A DNA stretch of 64,000 nt from Candidatus Omnitrophota bacterium (lineage in GTDB: Bacteria; Omnitrophota; Omnitrophia; Omnitrophales; Aquincolibacteriaceae), in NCBI GenBank assembly GCA_041666865.1, contig JBAYGD010000006.1, positions 20,390 through 84,389 of the forward strand, written 5' to 3'. Below the pieces are notes generated by a model. That model saw only the letters and a list, made by a program, of their open reading frames with translations, did not search any database and had not been told where the DNA came from. Shown here piece by piece: positions 3,785 through 23,713 of the stretch (positions are counted from its first letter, which is position 1; each line of letters starts with the position of its first letter). Both the position numbers and the translations under genes were made by a program.

Positions 3785-5050
3785 ATGCCAAATTATCAAT
3801 ACCGGGCTAAAGACGGCCGCGGGAAAACCGTCGATGGGTTGATGGAAGCGGCCAGTGAGGGAGAAGCCGTCGAAAAAGTCAACCGGCTTGGGCTTCTTCC
3901 GGTCCGAGTCGAACTGACGGCGGCACCCGTCAAGCCCGAGCCGGTGCAGAAAAGCGAAACCGAAGAAAAGGCTCCGGCCCGCCCCGTTGCGCGCAAAGCG
4001 CCCGCGAAGGGCGGTCCGATCAAGAGCAAGGAGATCACGGCGTTTGGCAGACAGCTCTCGAGCCTGATCCGCTCGGGGGTCCCTATTCTCAAGGCCATCG
4101 GCATCATCAGTCAGCAGTCCGACAGCGCGGCGTTCAAAAAAATGCTCGATCAAATCTACGAGGACGTCAAAAACGGCGCTCCTTTTTCGGCGTCCCTCGG
4201 GAAGTTTCCCGGTTTATTCCCCCCTCTTTATACCGCGCTCGTTGCGGCCGGAGAATCCACCGGGAACCTGGATCAGTCTCTTCTGAGGGTCACCGAATAC
4301 AGGCAAAAACAGGAGGACATCGTTTCCCGCGTCCGGGCGGCCCTGATCTACCCGATGCTGATGGGCATCACGGGGCTCGGGACCATTATTTTCATGCTCA
4401 CTTTTGTCATGCCCAGGCTTTTGGGCATCTTTGCGCGCCTTGGGGGCGAGTTGCCCCTGCCGACGAGGATTCTGATCGGGACAAGCGATGCGCTCAGGCA
4501 GCCCTGGATCTGGGTTGGCGTCGCGGCGGCCGTTTTGGCCGGTGTGGTCTTGAGCCGTCAGAAAAATGAAAAGCACGCTCTGGCCCTGAGTCTTTTTGTT
4601 TTGGGGATCCCGCTTCTCGGGGACTTCGCCCTGAAAATAGAAATTGCGCGCTTTACGCGGACCATGGAGCTTTTGATCAAAAGCGGCATCTCCGTTCTTG
4701 CGGCGATCCGCACCACGGCGCCCGTGATCGCGAACCTGGTCCTGCGCAACGACCTCCTGAAGTGCCTGCAGGATATCAGCGAGGGCGGCTCGTTCGGCAG
4801 AAGCCTCCGGAGGTCGAAGCGTTTTCCGAGTTTCATGATCAATCTGATCAGCGTTGGTGAAGAATCGGGCAAGCTCGATGAATCGCTCGGAGAAATCGCG
4901 AATTTTTACGAGCGTGAAACCGACGAGGCGGTGCGCATTCTGACCTCGCTCCTGGAGCCTTTGATGATCCTCGGGATGGGCCTGGTGGTCGGCTTCATCG
5001 TTGTGGCGATGCTGCTTCCCATGTTCGAAATCAACATGATGGTGAAATAA
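3785..5050 (+). CDS. gspF: Type II secretion / type IV pilus platform protein GspF/PilC family
   Basis: 421 aa with two T2SSF repeats (LSSLIRSGVPILKAI ... LLIKSGISVLAAI) and three TM segments. Starts 5 nt after the receiver stop. Confidence 0.85.
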   Translation: MPNYQYRAKDGRGKTVDGLMEAASEGEAVEKVNRLGLLPVRVELTAAPVKPEPVQKSETEEKAPARPVARKAPAKGGPIKSKEITAFGRQLSSLIRSGVPILKAIGIISQQSDSAAFKKMLDQIYEDVKNGAPFSASLGKFPGLFPPLYTALVAAGESTGNLDQSLLRVTEYRQKQEDIVSRVRAALIYPMLMGITGLGTIIFMLTFVMPRLLGIFARLGGELPLPTRILIGTSDALRQPWIWVGVAAAVLAGVVLSRQKNEKHALALSLFVLGIPLLGDFALKIEIARFTRTMELLIKSGISVLAAIRTTAPVIANLVLRNDLLKCLQDISEGGSFGRSLRRSKRFPSFMINLISVGEESGKLDESLGEIANFYERETDEAVRILTSLLEPLMILGMGLVVGFIVVAMLLPMFEINMMVK

Positions 5051-5061
5051 ACGGACCGGCG

Positions 5062-5859
5062 ATGCTGAAACGATTGTTCCTCCAAGGGGCTTGTTTGGGG
5101 ATGGTGCTGGGTATTTTTTTAGGGGCGAAGGGAAGTCCTCCGACCTGGGAAGAATTGAAAGGCGACCATTTTATCGTCTATTACACCGGCGCGGGTGACT
5201 TTGCGAAGGACGTCCTGCGAAAGGCGGAGGAATGTTATTCCCGGGTCGGTGAAGATCTCGGATACGCTCGGCATTCGAAATTTTGGCAATGGGAAAAACG
5301 GGTTAAGATCTACATTTACAAAACCCACGAGGATTTCGTTCGCGGGACGGGCCGGCAGAAATGGTCGCACGGGTATGCCGATTATCATGCCAAAAAGATC
5401 TTCAGCTATGAGTGGAAAGAAGGATTTCTGGACGCCCTGTTGCCTCATGAAATTACGCATCTGATTTTCCGGGATTACGTCGGGTTCCGGGGCGAAGTTC
5501 CGGTTTGGCTCGACGAGGGGGTTGCGCAGTGGCAGGAGCCCGCCAAGCGGGGGGCTGTCCGGCAGCTCATGAAGTTTTATTTTTATGATGAAAAGGGGTA
5601 TTCGCTGAAAAACCTGACCGAGATCGACGTTCAGAACGTCAGAACGAAACTTGCCGTGGATCTTTTTTACACTCAGTCGGCCTCGGTCATCGATTTTCTG
5701 GTGACCAAGTACGGGGGCGACCGTTTTGTCGACTTTTGCCGTCAACTGCGGGACGGGAAAAAAATGGACGAGGCCCTGCCTTTCGCCTATCCGCTGCAGA
5801 TCCGCAATCTCAACGAACTGGAGGAGCAATGGAAACAGTACATTTTAAGCGCACCGTAA
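5062..5859 (+). CDS. Predicted zinc metallopeptidase, Peptidase_MA-like (HExxH ... E), signal/TM N-terminus
   Basis: HEITHLIF followed by WLDEGVAQWQE gives the gluzincin HExxH plus downstream Glu ligand. Hydrophobic N-terminus. Lies between gspF and gspG. Confidence 0.6.
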   Translation: MLKRLFLQGACLGMVLGIFLGAKGSPPTWEELKGDHFIVYYTGAGDFAKDVLRKAEECYSRVGEDLGYARHSKFWQWEKRVKIYIYKTHEDFVRGTGRQKWSHGYADYHAKKIFSYEWKEGFLDALLPHEITHLIFRDYVGFRGEVPVWLDEGVAQWQEPAKRGAVRQLMKFYFYDEKGYSLKNLTEIDVQNVRTKLAVDLFYTQSASVIDFLVTKYGGDRFVDFCRQLRDGKKMDEALPFAYPLQIRNLNELEEQWKQYILSAP

Positions 5860-6263
5860 ACCCGCAATCCGGCTTCACGCTGATCGAGCTGATGCTTGTC
5901 GTGATCATTATCGGCGCCCTGGTGGCGATGGTCCTCCCTCGCCTTGCGGGCCGCTCCGAACAGGCGAGGGTGCAGGCTGCTCAGGCGGATATCCGCTCGA
6001 ACATCGCCACGGCCTTGAAGCTTTACGAACTCGATAACGGGTCCTTTCCGCCCTCGGGGGAGGGGCTGAACGCGCTTTTCACGAAATCAGGGAACGCGCG
6101 AAACTGGAACGGGCCGTATTTGGAGAAAAGGCCGCTGGATCCCTGGGGCCACGACTATAAATACGACAGCCCGGGAACGCACCGCCCCGGGGATTACGAC
6201 CTGTCGTCGGCAGGCAAAGACGGGGCCGCCGGCACGACCGATGATATTACCAATTGGGATTAA
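5829..6263 (+). CDS. gspG: Major pseudopilin GspG (type II secretion)
   Basis: Track ORF 5736..6263 starts at TTG; trimmed to the ATG giving METVHFKRTVNPQSG/FTLIELMLVVIIIGAL (prepilin cleavage motif with Glu+5). GspG C-terminal signature NGPYLEK...PLDPWGHDYKY...DYDLSSAGKDG. Confidence 0.85.
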   Translation: METVHFKRTVNPQSGFTLIELMLVVIIIGALVAMVLPRLAGRSEQARVQAAQADIRSNIATALKLYELDNGSFPPSGEGLNALFTKSGNARNWNGPYLEKRPLDPWGHDYKYDSPGTHRPGDYDLSSAGKDGAAGTTDDITNWD

Positions 6264-6651
6264 AAAAAGGTCCCGCGGTTTTACCCTGATCGAGGTTCTG
6301 ATCACGGTCGCCGTTCTTTCGGTGGCAACCGTTTTCATCTCGCAGGGCAACCTCTTGAGCGGGGCCGTGTACGGGCGTTCCGTCAACCGCCTGGAAATGC
6401 AGAATTGGGCGGCCGAAAAGATCTGGAAAGTCAAAGAAGAGATTCTGGGCGCCGAATTCCCAGAAGTCGGGGCCTCGAGCGGTGCGGTGCAGGGAAAAAC
6501 CCGCGCCTACCGGTGGACCCTGGACGTCAAAGAGGAGCGCGAGAAGCTTTGCACGGCGTACGAGATTTCGCTTGCCGTGACGTGGCCCGAAGGCGGCGGC
6601 GAAGCCCTTGCCGAGCGTTATGGCGCGATCCTGAAGGTGAAAGGTAAATAA
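6241..6651 (+). CDS. Minor pseudopilin, GspI-like
   Basis: N-terminal RG/FTLIEVLITVAVLSV prepilin motif, 136 aa. Start codon uncertain: it overlaps the gspG end and an internal alternative start is possible. Confidence 0.65.
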   Translation: MILPIGIKKRSRGFTLIEVLITVAVLSVATVFISQGNLLSGAVYGRSVNRLEMQNWAAEKIWKVKEEILGAEFPEVGASSGAVQGKTRAYRWTLDVKEEREKLCTAYEISLAVTWPEGGGEALAERYGAILKVKGK

Positions 6652-7252: not shown

Positions 7253-8297
7253 TCTTCTGGTGCTCGCGCTCTGGATGATCGCGGTGGTGGCGATTCTTTC
7301 GGTTTCGATCAGCGAGTATGTCCGCCAGAAAATCGCCCTCTCGGACCGTCTGGACCGGAGGAACTGGCTGGCCGGGATCGCGGAAACGGGGGTCACGCGG
7401 GTGCTGTACAAGCTCCGCCAGAAAAAAGAAGCGGCTGAAGGATATCACGGTTTGAACGATACATATACCAGTGCGGCGGGCGACGTCCGGATGGGGGAAG
7501 GGGCTTTGGCTCTTTCGTATCCGGTGCGGAATCCGTGGACCGGCCAGATGCAGATGCGCTACGGCGTCGAGGACGAAGAGGGCCGATTCAACGTCAACGT
7601 CATCGACGGCAAGAGAATCGCCAAGTTTATCGAAGTGGTCGCCGAGGCGGAGGAGGATCAGGCGAAGGAAATCGCCTACGCGATCGTGGACTGGAGGGAC
7701 ACCAACGATTCCCTGTCTGACCCGAAGTTCGGCGCCGAAGACGATGACTACGAGGACCTGGACCCGCCTTATGAGGCCAAAGACCAGCCCTTCGAATCAC
7801 TCGACGAGCTTTTGCTCGTCCGGGGCATGACCCCAGAGATCTTCGAGCGGATTCAGCCTTTCGTGACGATCTACGGCCCCGGGACGGTCAACATCAACAC
7901 CGCTCCGATGGAAGTTTTGATGGGGCTTGGAATGTCCAAGGAGCTCGCAGGAAAGGTCGTGATGTACCGTGCGGGGCAGGACGGGGAGGAAGGGACCTCC
8001 GACGACCGCGTTTTTATGCAGGCGGCGAATGTTTCCACGGAACTGATGAAGAAGGTCAAGCTGGCCGGCGCGGAATCGACGATGGTCTCACAGATGGTCA
8101 GTAAGGGACAGCTGGGCGTCGACTCGACTCATTTCCGGATCCGAAGCCAGGGCAAAAGCATGCGGAAAAAGCAGATTCTCGAGATCGAAGCAGTCGCCGA
8201 CACCGACGGAGTGATCCTGTCCTGGTCGGTTTCGTCGCCGAGGCGCATGAGCGCGCCGGAGCTGTCTTTGGCTGCGACGGGTACGCAAGAGGGATGA
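7209..8297 (+). CDS. gspK: Minor pseudopilin GspK
   Basis: Track ORF 7080..8297 trimmed to MSGRLL...GSLLVLALWMIAVVAIL. The GTVNINTAP motif of the GspK helix-hairpin-helix region is present. Confidence 0.75.
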   Translation: MSGRLLSRLRDPRGSLLVLALWMIAVVAILSVSISEYVRQKIALSDRLDRRNWLAGIAETGVTRVLYKLRQKKEAAEGYHGLNDTYTSAAGDVRMGEGALALSYPVRNPWTGQMQMRYGVEDEEGRFNVNVIDGKRIAKFIEVVAEAEEDQAKEIAYAIVDWRDTNDSLSDPKFGAEDDDYEDLDPPYEAKDQPFESLDELLLVRGMTPEIFERIQPFVTIYGPGTVNINTAPMEVLMGLGMSKELAGKVVMYRAGQDGEEGTSDDRVFMQAANVSTELMKKVKLAGAESTMVSQMVSKGQLGVDSTHFRIRSQGKSMRKKQILEIEAVADTDGVILSWSVSSPRRMSAPELSLAATGTQEG

Positions 8298-8310: not shown

Positions 8311-9786
8311 TTGAAACTGGTTTTCGGGTTTCCGAAGAACAAAAAAAAACCGGCGGTTCTCGCGGGAGAGGACTTGGTCTGCGTCAATCTCCAGGACCAG
8401 GAGGCCAAGGTCGCCGTTATCACTTCGAAATTGCAGGGCGACAGGCAGGTCAGCCAATTCTTGAGCTTCAGCGGCCAGGTCCCTTCCGCGGACGATCTGT
8501 CGGACCGTGTGTATGCCGCGCTCCAGCAGCTTCCTTTGAAAAATCCGAAGTTCGTCGGGGTGGTTTCCTCCAACCTCGTCGTGACCCGCAATATCGAAAT
8601 CCCGTCGCGCGATCCGGACGAAATTCGGGAAATCCTGAGCCTCCAGGCGTCCCGGCATACCCCTTACGCTCGCGACGAGATCATCATTGATTATATCAAT
8701 CTCGGAGTTTTCAAGAGCGTCTACACCAAAGTCCTTTTTATCATCGTCCCGAGGACGGTGGCCGCCCGCTACTATAATTTGGCCACCCGCCTCCGCTGGA
8801 GGATCGAGAAGATCGTTTTTATTTCGGAGGCGCTCGCCCGGTTTTTCTGCAAGCACCTGAACCTAGGGGGCGAACGCTTGCCGATTTGCATCCTGCAGGT
8901 GGATTCGACTGTCACCGAATTCGTCATCATGTTCCGGGGAGCCGCGCTCTTTGCCCGGAGCATTCCTGTTGGGGCCAAGCATTTTGCCGTGGCCAAGGAG
9001 GGGTATCAGGCCCGCTTTACCGAAGAGCTGAGGCGCTCCTTTGATACCTATCAGGGCGAGAATATCGACGCCATGCCCTCCCAAGTCCTGCTCACGGGCG
9101 CGATCCAGGGGCTCGACGACCTGAGTTTTACGATCGAGGATACGTTCCGTATGACGGTTAGACGGCTCACGGATCTCAACATGATTTCGATGGATGCCGA
9201 AGTCAAGGCGCAATGCGCGGGGCAGAATCTGGCGGTCCTTTCGGCGGCTGCGCCCGGGCTCCTCGTCGACGAACTGGCGGTGGATTTGAGCCCGGAGGAA
9301 AGCAGGCTCAAACGCCGCATGGAAGAAAGGTCGAAGGAGCTGATCAAAGCCGGCGTGCTCGGGATGGTGCTTCTGGGCCTTTTGTGCGTTTCGTTTGCGA
9401 GCCATATCTATCTGAAGACGGCACGGCTGGATCAGCTGACCAAGCGGTATGAGCCCATTCGCAAAGAAACGAAGTCGCTGGAAGAAACGTACGCCCGGGT
9501 CCGGGCGGTGAAGGGCCATTTGGCGGGGCGGGGGAAGGCCCTCAATTCCCTTGCCGAGCTTTGCTCGCTTCTTCCCAACGACATCTATCTGGCCGACATC
9601 AAATACGATACCGGCGGAAAAATGACGATCAAGGGGACCTCCTACACCAAGATTTCGATCTTCGGCTTGGTCGATAAAATGGGGAGCTCCAAGATTTTCA
9701 GGAATGTCCAAACCAAATATATTACCGGAAGGTCGGAAGAAGGCCTTGCTCTTTCCGATTTCGAAATCGCCACGACCGTGACCTGA
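8311..9786 (+). CDS. GspL-like inner-membrane assembly protein built as a PilM-like actin-fold cytoplasmic domain, a TM segment and a PilN-like periplasmic domain
   Basis: 491 aa. N-terminal ~330 aa are PilM/FtsA-like. The TM segment is LIKAGVLGMVLLGLLCVSF. The C-terminal domain is coiled-coil plus a PilN-like fold. Confidence 0.65.
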   Translation: MKLVFGFPKNKKKPAVLAGEDLVCVNLQDQEAKVAVITSKLQGDRQVSQFLSFSGQVPSADDLSDRVYAALQQLPLKNPKFVGVVSSNLVVTRNIEIPSRDPDEIREILSLQASRHTPYARDEIIIDYINLGVFKSVYTKVLFIIVPRTVAARYYNLATRLRWRIEKIVFISEALARFFCKHLNLGGERLPICILQVDSTVTEFVIMFRGAALFARSIPVGAKHFAVAKEGYQARFTEELRRSFDTYQGENIDAMPSQVLLTGAIQGLDDLSFTIEDTFRMTVRRLTDLNMISMDAEVKAQCAGQNLAVLSAAAPGLLVDELAVDLSPEESRLKRRMEERSKELIKAGVLGMVLLGLLCVSFASHIYLKTARLDQLTKRYEPIRKETKSLEETYARVRAVKGHLAGRGKALNSLAELCSLLPNDIYLADIKYDTGGKMTIKGTSYTKISIFGLVDKMGSSKIFRNVQTKYITGRSEEGLALSDFEIATTVT

Positions 9787-19172: not shown

Positions 19173-19313
19173 ATGAATGCGATGACTCGAAAGGTAGTTC
19201 TAGGCATGATGGTTCTGGCTACGATGTGTTCCGCGTCGGGTGCCGCTCAAGCGTGCGGCGGCGGTGGCGGCGGAGGCGATAAAGCGCCGGCATCGGATGA
19301 AGCCGTAAAGTAG
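19173..19313 (+). CDS. Unannotated small secreted peptide (46 aa) with Gly7 tract
   Basis: Not in the ORF track (under 60 aa). ATG preceded by AAGGAGGGGG. Product MNAMTRKVVLGMMVLATMCSASGAAQA/CGGGGGGGDKAPASDEAVK has a signal-peptide-like N-terminus. Confidence 0.4.
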   Translation: MNAMTRKVVLGMMVLATMCSASGAAQACGGGGGGGDKAPASDEAVK

Positions 19314-19438: not shown

Positions 19439-19816
19439 ATGAGAAAAATTTTATATGGGATGATTCTGCTTACGGCGTTCTCCGGTTGTTCTCAGGACTT
19501 CTGGAAGGCCAAGTACTATCTTTTCAAGGCGGAATCAGCCTTTGAAAAAGCGGAACACAAACGGACGGTGCAGAAAATTCCGCACGATCAACTGCGCGGC
19601 GAGTACGCCCGGGCTTGCGACGACTTTGTCCGGGCCTATATCGTCAATCCAAAAGTTTTTTTTCTCTATCACATCCAGCACGGTATCGACGCGTGCTGGC
19701 GCGGCGGTGAAAGCTTCAACCAGGAGAAGATGGAACGGTTCGAAAAGTCCTACATGAAAGAGCACCCTGTCGAGGCCGAATACGGCGAGATGGGGCTCGG
19801 AGGGCTGGAAGGTTGA
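19439..19816 (+). CDS. Hypothetical lipoprotein
   Basis: MRKILYGMILLTAFSGC gives a signal peptide plus lipobox Cys. 125 aa. Confidence 0.5.
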   Translation: MRKILYGMILLTAFSGCSQDFWKAKYYLFKAESAFEKAEHKRTVQKIPHDQLRGEYARACDDFVRAYIVNPKVFFLYHIQHGIDACWRGGESFNQEKMERFEKSYMKEHPVEAEYGEMGLGGLEG

Positions 19817-19955
19817 GCCTTCGCTGCACCGTGGAGCCCGAAGAGGCGAAGGACCGGCTGCTCGGGACCTATTGGACGATTTCGAAAAGGCAAACGGAGG
19901 CTTCGGTGGTTTTAGCGGACGAGCGATGGTTCCAAAATGTCACGGGCAGGCAGGG

Positions 19956-20561
19956 ATGAGGATTTCCGTTATTTTGGCGCATCCCTCGGCCGGAAGCTTC
20001 AACCATGCGATTGCCGAAACAGCGGTGAGGGTTTTGACCGCGTCCGGCCACGACCTTGTTTTCCACGATCTCTATCGGGAAAAATTCGATCCGGTGCTGA
20101 CGGCCGGAGAGATGGAGCATGGCCCGGACGAAGGGTCCCTCGTCGCTCTTCACTGTTGGGAAACGGTTCGTGCCAACGGGATCGTCATCATTCATCCAAA
20201 CTGGTGGGGTCAGCCGCCCGCGATCCTGAAAGGTTGGATCGACCGCGTACTGCGCCCAGGGGTGGCGTACCGCTTTGAAGAAAACGATCGCGGAGAGGGA
20301 GTGCCTGTGGGGCTTTTGAAAGCCAGGGCGGCTTTGATTTTCAACACCTCCAACACGCCGGAGGTCCGGGAAAATGCCGTGTTTGGCGATCCGCTCGAAG
20401 GTTTGTGGCGCCGATGCATTTTCGAACTTTGCGGGGTTCCCTCGGTGCGCCGGATCGTTTACCGGGTGGTCGTGACCAGCACGCAGGCCCAGCGGAAAGC
20501 CTGGCTGGACGAAGCGGCTGCTTCTGTCCGGGAATATTTTCGGGAGGGCTCGATCTCCTGA
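19956..20561 (+). CDS. Flavodoxin-like fold NAD(P)H dehydrogenase (quinone) family protein
   Basis: Track ORF trimmed to MRISVILAHPSAGSFNHAIAE, the typical Flavodoxin_2 N-terminus. WWGQPPAILKGWIDRV motif. Confidence 0.7.
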   Translation: MRISVILAHPSAGSFNHAIAETAVRVLTASGHDLVFHDLYREKFDPVLTAGEMEHGPDEGSLVALHCWETVRANGIVIIHPNWWGQPPAILKGWIDRVLRPGVAYRFEENDRGEGVPVGLLKARAALIFNTSNTPEVRENAVFGDPLEGLWRRCIFELCGVPSVRRIVYRVVVTSTQAQRKAWLDEAAASVREYFREGSIS

Positions 20562-20599: not shown

Positions 20600-21535
20600 A
20601 TGAAAAAAGAAGAGAAGACCAAGGACCAACTCGAGAAGGAGCTGGTCCAGCTCAGCATTGAGCTGGCGTCCCGCAAGCTCATCGAGCGGCAAAGCGAGTG
20701 GATTTTTTCGCGGATCAAGGATGAGCGCTCCAAGCTTGCCGCTGTATTCAACTGCATGCCCAACGGGGTTGCCATCATCCGCGAAGACCACAGGGTCGAG
20801 TTCGAAAACCGGTGGATTCAGGATCGCTTTGGGGCCGAGAAGGAAAAAATTTGCTACAGGGACTACTTCCTGCGCGAGACTGCATGTCCCAACTGCGCGA
20901 TGAAGCGAGCGCTGCGGAGCGGCAAGCCCGAAGAAATTGAAATTAAGACCAAGAATGAACGCTGTTACAAAATGATCGCCTCCCCGATGGGCGAGGTCGA
21001 CGGCGTCCGCACCGTCGTCAAGATCATCATCGACGTGACGGAACAAAAGCGGGCGATTGAGGCCACGTTTCAAAGCCAGCAAAAGTACGTTGACCTTGTG
21101 AACAACATCAATGTCGGGGTCTACCGCGCCACCCCGGAGCCGGGCGGCCGGTTCCTCGAGGTCAATCCTGCGCTGGTGACCATCCTGGAAATGAAATCGA
21201 CCCGGGACCTCATCGGGCGGCTCGTGAGCGATTTCCACGTCAACCGTGTTCGGCGAAAAGAGATCAGCGACCAACTGACCGAGAGAGGGTTCGTCAAAAA
21301 GGAGGAGGCCGAGATGGTGTCGGGCAAGGGCCGCCGGTTCTGGGCTTCGATTACGGCCGTCCGGCGAGAAGACGCCGAGGGCGGCGTTTTTTTTGACGGG
21401 ATCATCGAGGATGTTACCGAACACAAGCTCGTCTTTGAGGAGACGCGGCGCCTGAATGAGGAGCTCAAAAAATCCAATGCTCGCTTGAAACGTCTTGCGT
21501 CGCGCAAGGAATCCCCAAGGAGGCTCGGGCAATGA
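20600..21535 (+). CDS. Cytoplasmic two-PAS-domain sensor protein without output domain
   Basis: N-terminal coiled coil and two PAS-like segments (VFNCMPNGVAIIRED... ; VNNINVGVYRATPE...). Cys pair CPNC. No kinase or GGDEF domain. Confidence 0.65.
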   Translation: MKKEEKTKDQLEKELVQLSIELASRKLIERQSEWIFSRIKDERSKLAAVFNCMPNGVAIIREDHRVEFENRWIQDRFGAEKEKICYRDYFLRETACPNCAMKRALRSGKPEEIEIKTKNERCYKMIASPMGEVDGVRTVVKIIIDVTEQKRAIEATFQSQQKYVDLVNNINVGVYRATPEPGGRFLEVNPALVTILEMKSTRDLIGRLVSDFHVNRVRRKEISDQLTERGFVKKEEAEMVSGKGRRFWASITAVRREDAEGGVFFDGIIEDVTEHKLVFEETRRLNEELKKSNARLKRLASRKESPRRLGQ

Positions 21536-21663
21536 CTTTTCAAAATTTATTTCCGTTCTGCCGTTGCGACACATCACACATCTGCCCCTTTTGCTGGGCC
21601 CTGACGGGCCTTTGCGCGGCGGGCCTCGTCCTGCTTCTCGTTTTTTTTATCCGTAAACGATAG
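21532..21663 (+). CDS. Unannotated 43-aa Cys-rich small membrane protein (CxC-x5-C-x2-C then a TM helix)
   Basis: ATG overlaps the PAS-protein stop (ATGA). AAGGAGG lies 7 nt upstream. Product MTFQNLFPFCRCDTSHICPFCWALTGLCAAGLVLLLVFFIRKR. Confidence 0.45.
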   Translation: MTFQNLFPFCRCDTSHICPFCWALTGLCAAGLVLLLVFFIRKR

Positions 21664-21678
21664 GGGCGGATCTCATCC

Positions 21679-22578
21679 ATGCAAACTTTTCACGTCAAGG
21701 AAAGCCGTCCGCTTTTGGCCTTTCTTCTGGAGGCTCTCGCAGGGACCCCGCGCACGAGAATCAAGGAGCACCTCCGCCTGAAGCGCGTCGCTGTCAACGG
21801 CAAGGCGGTCACGCAGTTCGATCAGCCGCTTGAAACCGGAGACAAGGTCGAAGTCGGAGCGCGCCACGGCGCTCCCGGCCGGATTTCGCCCGGATTCGGC
21901 ATCGAAATCCTGTATGACGATGACGCCGTTGTCGTGATTCATAAGCCTAACGGCCTTTTGAGCGTCGGGAGCGAGACCGTCCGGCATCGTACGGCCATCC
22001 GCGCCGTCAACGATTACCTGAACCGGGAGGCCTCCCACGCGGATATCCGGCGACGGGACCGGGCGATTCGGAGCAAAATGATATTTATCGTCCACCGGCT
22101 CGACCGGGAGGCCTCAGGGCTGATGGTTTTCGCGAAGACGGTTGAAGGCAAGCTCTTTCTGCAGGAACACTGGCACGAGTTTCGGAAAAAATACTTTGCC
22201 GTGGTGGAGGGGAGCCCGGCAGAACCGGAGGGGACGCTTTCCGGCTATTTAAAGGAAAACAAATTTCTGCGGGTGCATTCGGCACGCAAGGGGCCCGGGG
22301 CCCGGATGGCGGTCACGCACTATTCGACGGTCCGTACGAACGGCCGCCATTCGCTTCTCGAGGTCGAGCTTGGCACGGGCAGAAAGCACCAGATCCGCGC
22401 GCAGCTGGCTGAGGCGGGCCATCCCGTTGCGGGGGATGACCGTTACGGTGCGAAGACCGACCCTGCGGGGCGGCTGGCCCTGCACGCCTGCCGGCTCGAG
22501 TTTTGCCATCCGGTTACGGGTGCCCCGATGGTTTTTGATTCGCCTTTGCCTGAAACCTTTAAACGCATCATCGATTAG
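21679..22578 (+). CDS. RluA-family 23S rRNA pseudouridine synthase (RluC/D-like, N-terminal S4 domain)
   Basis: HRLDREASGLMVFAK catalytic motif. N-terminal S4-like RLKRVAVNGKAV. Confidence 0.85.
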   Translation: MQTFHVKESRPLLAFLLEALAGTPRTRIKEHLRLKRVAVNGKAVTQFDQPLETGDKVEVGARHGAPGRISPGFGIEILYDDDAVVVIHKPNGLLSVGSETVRHRTAIRAVNDYLNREASHADIRRRDRAIRSKMIFIVHRLDREASGLMVFAKTVEGKLFLQEHWHEFRKKYFAVVEGSPAEPEGTLSGYLKENKFLRVHSARKGPGARMAVTHYSTVRTNGRHSLLEVELGTGRKHQIRAQLAEAGHPVAGDDRYGAKTDPAGRLALHACRLEFCHPVTGAPMVFDSPLPETFKRIID

Positions 22579-22597: not shown

Positions 22598-23713
22598 ATG
22601 AATGTTCAAGGTGTCCCGACACGTACCATTTGGCTCAAAAAGAAGGATCCCCGCGTGGTTCAGATAATCGATCAGCGCGCCCTTCCGCACCGCTTTGTCG
22701 TCGAAGACTTGAAGACCCTGGGCGACTGCTGCCGCGCCATCAAGGATATGCACCTTCGCGGGGCGCCGCTCATCGGCGTTGCCGCCGCCTACGGAATGTA
22801 TTTGGCTGCTCTCGACTCGCCCAAGGGCCTCGCGCCGGCGGCGTGGCGGGCCTGGATGCGAAAAGCGGGCGCCCGGTTGACGGAGACGCGCCCGACGGCG
22901 GTCAATTTGCGGATCGGAGTCGAGCGGGTCCTGGCCGAGATTTTGAAAATCGGCTCCCCAAGCCATGGAATTGAGGCCGCATGCGCCGCCGCTCGGTCGC
23001 TCGAGGCTGAAGAGATTGAAAATTGCCGCAGAATCGGCGAGCACGGCCTTACGGTCATCGAAAAAATCCATCGCGGAAAAAAGGGGCGGCCCGTCCAGAT
23101 TTTGACGCACTGCAACGCCGGCTGGCTTGCCTGTGTCGACTGGGGCACCGCGACCGCTCCGATGTACGCCGCTTTCAACAAAAAAATTCCGGTCCATGTG
23201 TGGGTCGACGAGACCCGGCCGCGCAATCAGGGTGCAAGCCTCACGGCGTGGGAGCTCGGTCAGCACGGCGTTCCCTACACGGTCATCGTGGACAATGCCG
23301 GCGGGCACCTGATGCAACACGGTTTAGTGGATCTTGTGATCGTCGGCTCTGACCGGACCACCGCCTCGGGGGACGTTGCCAACAAGATCGGGACCTATTT
23401 GAAAGCACTTGCCGCCAAAGACAACGGCGTTCCTTTTTATGCCGCGCTTCCTTCCACCACCATTGACTGGGACATGGACGACGGGGTCCGCGAAATTCCA
23501 ATCGAGGAGCGTGAATCGGAAGAAGTGACTCAGATTCAGGGCCTGGACGGCGGTGTGATCCGCAAGGTCCTTCTGACCCCAAAGGGCGCAAGGGCCGCCA
23601 ATTACGGTTTTGATGTGACGCCACGCCGGCTTGTGACGGGCATCATCACGGAGCGCGGGATTGCACGAGCGTCACGGGCGGGATTGCGAAAACTTTTTCC
23701 GAAAAAACAATAG
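22598..23713 (+). CDS. mtnA: Methylthioribose-1-phosphate isomerase (eIF-2B-like family)
   Basis: Track ORF trimmed to MNVQGVPTRTIWL (RBS AAGGAG). IDQRALPHRF, MHLRGAPLIGVAAAYG and VGSDRTTASGDVANKIGTY motifs. Confidence 0.75.
   Translation: MNVQGVPTRTIWLKKKDPRVVQIIDQRALPHRFVVEDLKTLGDCCRAIKDMHLRGAPLIGVAAAYGMYLAALDSPKGLAPAAWRAWMRKAGARLTETRPTAVNLRIGVERVLAEILKIGSPSHGIEAACAAARSLEAEEIENCRRIGEHGLTVIEKIHRGKKGRPVQILTHCNAGWLACVDWGTATAPMYAAFNKKIPVHVWVDETRPRNQGASLTAWELGQHGVPYTVIVDNAGGHLMQHGLVDLVIVGSDRTTASGDVANKIGTYLKALAAKDNGVPFYAALPSTTIDWDMDDGVREIPIEERESEEVTQIQGLDGGVIRKVLLTPKGARAANYGFDVTPRRLVTGIITERGIARASRAGLRKLFPKKQ

Follow-up and report, generated by a model that had tools for sequence, protein, structure and literature searches.

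Between a gene for a stand-alone protein with two PAS domains and a gene for an RluA-family pseudouridine synthase, a metagenome-assembled genome (MAG) of Candidatus Omnitrophota encodes a 43-amino-acid (aa) membrane microprotein that had escaped annotation. The locus lies in a stretch of 64,000 nucleotides (nt) of contig JBAYGD010000006.1, analysed as a whole and called the window here. Its 43-codon open reading frame (ORF) is a real protein-coding gene, conserved and under purifying selection. The product, MTFQNLFPFCRCDTSHICPFCWALTGLCAAGLVLLLVFFIRKR, read from the window sequence starting with the ATG at 21532-21534, combines a tight cluster of four cysteines with a single hydrophobic segment and a basic tail. 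Judged by its sequence, it is a member of an undescribed family within a known general kind, the small Cys-bearing single-pass membrane proteins. We put at roughly 0.55 the probability that it works on its own as a thiol-based module for metal or redox chemistry at the membrane surface.

A microprotein gene missed by gene callers

The ORF by itself is weak evidence, and conservation is what lifts it above chance. ATG-initiated ORFs of at least 43 codons arise in 5.9% of shuffles of the 200-nt segment, and the GC content by codon position across the ORF is not clearly gene-like. A preliminary description of the window, made from its letters and a list of ORFs, had pointed out that the frame was uncalled, and gene callers passed over it on all four public contigs from the source organism as well. 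Exact look-up of the product in the public protein collection returned no entry, and therefore it has never been called as a gene.

The start region has the layout of a translationally coupled gene. As the preliminary description had it, the start codon runs into the stop codon of the PAS gene (TGA, 21533-21535), giving ATGA at 21532-21535. The same description had placed a Shine-Dalgarno (SD) sequence AAGGAGG 7 nt upstream; the site is there, and its spacer (ctcgggca) measures 8 nt. From this arrangement we conclude that the microprotein gene in all likelihood uses AAGGAGG as a ribosome-binding site of its own, with the ATGA overlap linking its initiation to the end of PAS-gene translation. 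The CxC-x5-C-x2-C motif, single transmembrane (TM) helix and basic C-terminus that had been read from the letters were all found in the window translation. The cysteines are spaced as C10-x-C12-x5-C18-x2-C21, and a fifth, C28, lies within the hydrophobic segment.

Homologues and evidence for selection

An exhaustive phmmer search of 1.84 billion representative proteins with the microprotein identified P0026 (52 aa, E = 2.4e-5) and P0028 (44 aa, E = 6.3e-4). Both sit in the syntenic position, and in a family profile search they score E = 7e-21 and E = 2e-20, respectively. Two further phmmer matches (P0025 and P0027) were discarded as repeat or hydrophobic-segment artefacts inside large proteins, and locus L028 was set aside as a relative because it shares only ICPFCWALT. 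A word-index protein search with the lone 43-aa sequence gave no match, and neither a scan of viral contigs nor tblastn on plasmid and phage collections found any relative of the microprotein.

The same syntenic slot is filled by 44-52-aa homologues in four other Candidatus Omnitrophota lineages (L017, the contig of P0026 and P0003, L029, L030 and L020). Two of these loci encode close homologues of the window PAS protein, P0002 (78% identity) and P0003 (73%). On the P0002 contig (L017), the frame starting 13 nt past the PAS stop encodes MNPLNLFSFCHCNGMTICPFCQLLTVVCLVAVLALGVFLPVKHKGKKN; on the P0003 contig, the 52-aa gene, which is that of P0026, overlaps the PAS stop by 4 nt. In L029 and L030, which provide DNA for the P0026 lineage, a GTG start overlaps the PAS stop as GTGA, and AAGGAGG lies 10 nt before it. 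In L020, the locus of P0028, the ribosome-binding site GAGGGAGG is found 6 nt upstream. A genome-contig scan with the PAS protein did not reveal any syntenic locus; its matches (26-46% identity, partial) were all generic to PAS domains.

A profile-guided scan of metagenome contigs recovered a second clade (clade B; L023-L027) of 46-47 aa, with the product MDFPEWLKFCHCNGTQICPFCQLLTVICIALFSCLLGYLLGKRKKDK. Each copy is preceded, 5 nt upstream, by AAAGGAGG or AAAGGAAG, and strong SD sites are present in four of the five lineage groups. Residues M1, C10, C12, I17, C18, F20, C21, L24, T25 and K42 are invariant across the 8-sequence family alignment, the window sequence carrying every one of them, and P0029-P0031 likewise keep C10, C12, I17, C18, F20 and C21. 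We define the family as proteins of 43-52 aa with the motif M-x8-C-x-C-x4-I-C-[PV]-F-C-x2-L-T, one TM helix and a Lys/Arg tail. A regular expression for the motif and the hydrophobic run, applied to the six frames of the window and of 28 loci, matched family members only.

In L017, a 52-aa ORF is annotated on the opposite strand over the microprotein gene (L017:1965-2123, minus strand). This antisense frame is not conserved in the window; the call is almost certainly spurious and masks the real microprotein gene.

The preliminary description had named frame conservation and Ka/Ks at homologous loci as checks on the gene, and both speak for it. The reading frame is free of disrupting indels and stops in every relative found. 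Distant members differ at synonymous sites in a proportion of 0.62-0.99 (saturated) and at non-synonymous sites in a proportion of 0.34-0.44. Between L029 and L030, the ratio of non-synonymous to synonymous rates (dN/dS) is 0.23 for the microprotein, compared with 0.05 for the PAS gene, 0.26 for the flavodoxin-like gene and 0.19 for the RluA gene that flank it, and with 0.36-2.4 in the five other frames of the microprotein DNA. Of the seven amino-acid changes between these two loci, six are conservative and fall in the TM helix; none touches the Cys motif. Within clade B, L023 and L025 differ by 9 synonymous and 2 non-synonymous changes.

It is hardly credible, then, that the frame is a chance ORF in the spacer between the PAS and RluA genes, or that what is conserved there is an RNA or terminator element. 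A frame of this length turns up in about 6% of shuffles, it went uncalled on the four contigs of the source organism, and a terminator-like hairpin lies inside it. However, amino acids are kept across saturated synonymous sites, the selection signal is frame-specific, and the same protein occurs in unrelated DNA contexts. Rfam gave no match on the window region, and terminator-like sites are as frequent there as in the shuffled background.

Predicted architecture and topology

The best 19-residue hydrophobic window of the microprotein spans residues 22-40 (Kyte-Doolittle mean 2.46) and is followed by RKR. Throughout the family, an aromatic-rich flank of 16-22 residues with a net charge of -1 to 0 precedes the best hydrophobic window, the hydrophobic segment comprises about 19-21 residues (Kyte-Doolittle 2.3-2.9), and the tail of 3-11 residues after it has a net charge of +3 to +5 in all members. 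Because the flank is neutral and the tail basic, the positive-inside rule predicts a single-pass protein with its N-terminus outside and its C-terminus inside (N-out/C-in). A short uncharged N-terminal tail can cross the membrane without a signal peptide, as does that of the 44-aa Pf3 coat protein.

AlphaFold2, run on a 3-sequence alignment, models a helix over residues 19-42, with a mean predicted local distance difference test (pLDDT) score of 83-91 over the blocks 21-30 and 31-40. Since the modelled helix begins at residue 19, the C[PV]FC pair would lie on its first turn, at the membrane interface. The CxC pair is located 5 residues ahead of the C[PV]FC pair.

Proposed function and alternative readings

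We propose that the short uncharged N-terminal tail is translocated and that the basic tail remains cytoplasmic, in the manner of the Pf3 coat protein. The Cys4 cluster of 12 residues would then lie at the outer surface of the cytoplasmic membrane, and its second Cys pair would occupy the first turn of the TM helix. There, the cluster could either chelate a metal ion (Zn, Cu or Fe) or cycle between dithiol and disulfide. The microprotein would act alone or together with some common membrane component, rather than serve specifically as the output of the PAS protein. Thiol chemistry at the membrane surface is suggested by where selection concentrates: on the four cysteines, which fall in a stretch of 12 residues, on I17, F20, L24 and T25, and on the TM helix with its basic tail. 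Autonomous action seems most likely because the gene survives where the PAS gene is missing and, in the other lineage, travels as a module of its own. Topology, chemistry (metal or redox) and physiological role are all inferred in this proposal.

Several points weigh against it. The N-terminal 18 residues are modelled by AlphaFold2 with low confidence (block means of 52 and 61). An N-in orientation with the Cys4 cluster in the cytoplasm is possible, since the positive-inside rule is the sole basis of the predicted topology, and bacterial tail-anchored proteins with a basic C-terminus exist. The microprotein gene of L017 has no recognizable SD site. The family amounts to about 10 distinct sequences in two clades, and guilt by association is hence weak; the constant flavodoxin-like neighbour described below may reflect only inherited gene order.

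The preliminary description had envisaged the microprotein and the PAS protein as the two parts of a split sensor. It was right that the PAS protein has no output domain and carries a CPNC pair. A homologue with 46% identity to it, P0004 (L018:2304-3683), runs from the same linker into a GGDEF domain, and the PAS protein of the window ends exactly at this coiled-coil linker; it resembles a sensor module whose output was lost or never acquired. A conserved C-x10-C-x2-C lies in its first PAS domain; P0005 adds a fourth cysteine (C-x3-C-x6-C-x2-C), and these cysteines suggest a metal or Fe-S site. The microprotein could thus be imagined as a membrane-anchored Cys-bearing sensing partner that replaces the GGDEF output, much as MgrB partners PhoQ, to which it relays periplasmic redox signals via two cysteines (PMC12648545). 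The overlap of start and stop codons, ATGA in the window and GTGA or ATGA in L029 and L030 and on the P0026 contig, would fit such a pair, as would the adjacency of the two genes in L017. However, L020 has the microprotein and no PAS gene in that interval, and the L023-L027 stretches examined for clade B contain neither a PAS gene nor a flavodoxin-like gene. Conversely, P0004 and P0005 keep the PAS Cys motif without an adjoining microprotein gene. No TM segment is present in the PAS protein, and of the microprotein only RKR (3-11 residues in relatives) is predicted to be cytoplasmic, which would offer a cytoplasmic PAS protein little to contact. We regard the split sensor as unlikely: the case for a specific tie of the microprotein to the PAS sensor is weakened, and the link would be lineage-restricted at best.

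Were the microprotein tail-anchored with its N-terminus inside, its cysteines could form a Zn or Fe-S knuckle in the cytoplasm that holds or matures a membrane partner, possibly the upstream flavodoxin-like quinone reductase. The model would be NqrM, a small membrane-bound Fe-S maturation protein that is thought to deliver iron to Na+-NQR (PMC12174285; PMC6209661). A flavodoxin-like gene does lie upstream in all five Omnitrophota lineages, four cysteines in 12 residues fit a tetrahedral site, and the window sequence, alone in the family, has a weak motif-level resemblance to the CDGSH 2Fe-2S proteins (E = 0.15). We nevertheless find this arrangement doubtful, given that the charge bias favours N-out in every member, that clade B lacks the flavodoxin-like gene, that no member has the DG[SAT]H that would complete the CDGSH motif, and that Pfam-A at E <= 1 gives just three chance-level matches. 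Quite improbable, in our judgement, is a small membrane toxin or defence-island effector, Hok-like, type I toxin-like or an abortive-infection peptide, that perturbs the membrane. One TM helix with a charged tail does resemble small toxins, the mosaic region of clade B contains a HigB/Gp49-HTH toxin-antitoxin pair, a HerA-like ATPase and variable ORFs, and Hok-family toxins have functional cysteines (PMC12648545). Such a role is at odds with vertical inheritance in a housekeeping-type operon of Omnitrophota, with a strong SD site and translational coupling, and with constraint that peaks at the soluble Cys motif while the TM helix takes six of the seven L029/L030 substitutions, all of them conservative. 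Neither PADLOC nor PHROGs matched the microprotein, and it is absent from the phage, plasmid and viral collections searched. We would give slightly less credence still to a minimal thiol-quinone or thiol-metal relay made of a single helix, which would do in 45 residues what DsbB or VKOR does. In such a relay, C[PV]FC would trade electrons with membrane quinones fed by the adjacent NAD(P)H:quinone reductase, CxC would shuttle to periplasmic thiols, and in the PAS lineages the protein would also report the membrane redox state to the PAS protein.

Whatever the Cys4 segment does, the microprotein founds a new conserved small-protein family with a clear signature that is unmatched by Pfam, NCBIfam, PADLOC and PHROGs models. 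It is one among very many uncharacterised small membrane proteins, and it is also a case of annotation loss, uncalled on four contigs and hidden under a spurious antisense call in L017. Members of the Omnitrophota have not been cultured and are poorly understood; a Cys4 module whose gene accompanies those for a quinone reductase and a PAS protein offers a testable way into the redox or metal biology of their envelope. A redox relay or metal site built from a single helix, should the Cys4 segment prove to be one, would be among the smallest such devices known. That the gene also occurs in another lineage as an independent block of about 200 nt suggests a solo function and makes heterologous testing realistic.

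Comparison with known families and systems

None of the Pfam-A and NCBIfam models gave a significant match to any of 8 family members. The best Pfam scores, all below threshold, were for zf-CDGSH, Syndecan and DUF2198, with nothing else at E <= 1. The best NCBIfam score, LPXTG_anchor (E = 0.0022, one of 8 members), reflects the generic layout of a TM segment and a basic tail. A PDB profile search returned a single insignificant match (E = 1.2), to a DNA primase zinc motif, and literature searches did not find a description of this Cys4-TM motif.

The zf-CDGSH score concerns the window sequence, one of the 8 members, at 12.8 bits (E = 0.15) against a cut-off of 29.5 bits. The window sequence fits the first half of the motif of CDGSH proteins of the mitoNEET type, C-x-C-x2-S-x3-P-x-C. 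None of the members has the second half, DG[SAT]H, and the residues at the S/T and P positions vary.

The preliminary description had also likened the microprotein to zinc-ribbon anti-sigma partners. With the ZAS/zf-HC2 proteins it does share an N-terminal Cys metal motif followed by a TM helix. However, none of the 8 members matches zf-HC2 at E <= 1, and the anti-sigma domain of about 80 aa is absent. The H-x3-C-x2-C motif is absent too: position 16 of the microprotein is H, T, S, R or Q, and the spacing in the window is H-x-C-x2-C. No gene for an extracytoplasmic function (ECF) or other sigma factor lies near any family locus, and the anti-sigma suggestion is not supported.

For the idea of a sensor partner, the best functional model is MgrB, a 47-aa inhibitor of PhoQ in Enterobacteria whose conserved cysteines outside the membrane give redox sensitivity (PMC12648545). 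Like the microprotein, it has about 45 aa, a single pass and extramembrane cysteines. It differs in that its TM segment comes first and its C-terminal part is periplasmic, with two cysteines versus four, and its Pfam model does not match the family. Moreover, MgrB acts on a histidine kinase in the membrane; the PAS protein here is soluble, and relatives can do without it.

The likeness to NqrM (DUF539) is that of a small membrane protein encoded beside a quinone oxidoreductase. Its Pfam model does not match either, the family loci contain no nqr genes, and the reductase here is a soluble flavodoxin-fold enzyme. NqrM is a single-pass protein with conserved cysteines and has its TM helix at the N-terminus. 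Similarly, the FeoB-associated Cys-rich membrane proteins have about 50 aa, one TM helix and a short Cys-rich segment. In these proteins, which are linked to feoB and are without established function, the TM helix comes first and the Cys cluster follows. The microprotein has the two elements in reversed order, matches neither the Pfam nor the NCBIfam model, and has no feo genes near any member.

Among thiol-disulfide oxidoreductases, thioredoxin-fold proteins, DsbB and VKOR carry their redox-active CxxC at the first helical turn, in DsbB and VKOR at the membrane interface; glutaredoxin motifs are of the CPYC/CPFC type, and CxC plus CxxC make up the zinc centre and switch of Hsp33. We take both as precedents for the proposed thiol module. 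C-[PV]-F-C at the helix start and a flexible CxC resemble these at the motif level only; their layout would suit an active-site pair served by a shuttle pair, or a zinc redox switch with four cysteines. With one helix and 21 residues, the microprotein has no thioredoxin fold, four-helix bundle or quinone site. C-terminal sorting signals (LPXTG, PEP-CTERM, MYXO-CTERM, GlyGly-CTERM) differ in that the microprotein has neither a signal peptide nor a passenger domain and totals 43-52 aa.

Four other identities were considered and rejected. A precursor of a ribosomally synthesized and post-translationally modified peptide (RiPP) would need a maturase gene; there is none nearby, and the only hint was a 9.5-bit SbtA match. 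A leader peptide or upstream ORF for rluA is contradicted by L020 and clade B, where the downstream gene differs. An inovirus coat protein, with which the Pf3-like layout would agree, lacks prophage context and viral matches. An origin de novo from a deleted GGDEF region does not account for the occurrence of the protein without any PAS gene.

Gene neighbourhood in Omnitrophota

The gene order in the window is HSP20, a 46-aa ORF, a 125-aa ORF, a 48-codon GNAT remnant, a reductase of the Flavodoxin_2 family, the PAS gene, the microprotein gene, RluA and MtnA (22598..23713), and then EF-Tu, SecE and NusG (coordinates of the principal features in Table 1). From the flavodoxin-like gene through MtnA, the genes are spaced by 38 nt, -4 nt, 15 nt and 19 nt in turn, and terminator signals between them do not exceed background. 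The tight spacing and overlaps, together with the lack of a terminator signal above background, suggest an operon, and the flavodoxin-like reductase, PAS protein, microprotein, RluA and MtnA are probably co-transcribed. L029 and L030 have the same gene order, with 4-nt overlaps from the GNAT gene on to the microprotein gene. In L020, the order is GNAT, Flavodoxin_2, microprotein, an LssY_C lipoprotein-like gene and MtnA, and neither a PAS nor an RluA gene is present. The flavodoxin-like reductase is the sole protein-coding neighbour kept upstream in all five Omnitrophota lineages, and no neighbour gene is universal across the whole microprotein family.

Table 1. Locations of the microprotein gene, its elements and its neighbours in the window, and of the repeats in the clade B loci
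Feature	Location	Strand	Remarks
Flavodoxin-like-fold NAD(P)H-dependent (quinone) reductase	19956..20561	+	Pfam Flavodoxin_2, 7.5e-32
PAS-PAS protein, 311 aa, stand-alone	20600..21535	+	Pfam/NCBIfam PAS matches in two stretches; coiled-coil linker end
Shine-Dalgarno AAGGAGG	21517..21523	+	Within the last PAS-gene codons, 8 nt before the microprotein ATG
Microprotein gene	21532..21663	+	43 codons and TAG stop (21661-21663)
Cys4 motif C-x-C-x5-C-[PV]-F-C, codons 10-21 (CRCDTSHICPFC)	21559..21594	+	Invariant cysteines
Predicted transmembrane helix, codons 22-40 (WALTGLCAAGLVLLLVFFI)	21595..21651	+	Invariant L24, T25; semi-conserved Cys28
Basic C-terminal tail RKR	21652..21660	+	Net charge of +3 to +5 after the hydrophobic segment across the family
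RluA-family pseudouridine synthase	21679..22578	+	15 nt past the microprotein stop
Clade B junction repeat	L025:3361-3397, 3963-3999, 4943-4979, 5142-5195; L023:1505, 2114, 3569; L026:2022-2060, 4908, 5279
GTACGGY repeat	L025:5266-5304, 6254-6329, 7823-7925, 8400-8514

Two further features of this neighbourhood deserve mention. The 48-codon ORF at 19813-19959 (plus strand) corresponds to only the C-terminal 32 residues (63% identity) of a GNAT acetyltransferase. The full GNAT gene of L029, L030 and L020 encodes 170-172 aa and is located between a 126-aa gene and the flavodoxin-like gene; in the genome of the window it appears to be reduced to a remnant. The 46-aa micro-ORF at 19173-19313 (plus strand; ACGGGGGGG) has an N-terminus that resembles a signal peptide, closes with A-C and leads into a run of glycines. 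Its L029 counterpart, of 45 aa, occupies the same position and has 31% identity and the same ACGGGGG junction. This micro-ORF is called on some contigs of the source organism and uncalled on others, and its product looks like a tiny lipoprotein.

Mosaic setting of the clade B genes

The clade B loci have nothing but the microprotein in common with the window (GC content of 41-45% versus 56.5%). The microprotein gene forms a separate homology block of 170-206 nt amid shuffled, mutually unrelated neighbours, and the order of blocks varies between contigs from one metagenome. These neighbours include ORFs of 167-286 aa with no Pfam match, a pair of Gp49/HigB-like and helix-turn-helix (HTH) genes, a cupin, a DUF2065 protein and a HerA-like ATPase, which matches PADLOC HerA models.

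A conserved junction repeat of about 37 nt, which starts at the stop codon (TAGAACGGTACCAGGTACCTCGGGGACACGTAAGGTG), divides the single-gene blocks of clade B. Judged by eye and by folding, it has no attC core sites (RYYYAAC, GTTRRRY); there is no integrase within the clade B stretches examined, and an Rfam search of the clade B loci gave no match. From their arrangement, the blocks behave like a cassette array, yet one in which the junction repeat is without the usual attC cores.

L025 has a second repeat family, in which GTACGGY heptamers pair with a CCGTAC-rich arm and are followed by a conserved 45-nt tail (GTTTCGAAAGTAGACGCAAC...GGATAGAATCCCTCC). At one L025 site, the two arms of this repeat flank the Gp49-HTH toxin-antitoxin block, as if it had been inserted into the hairpin.

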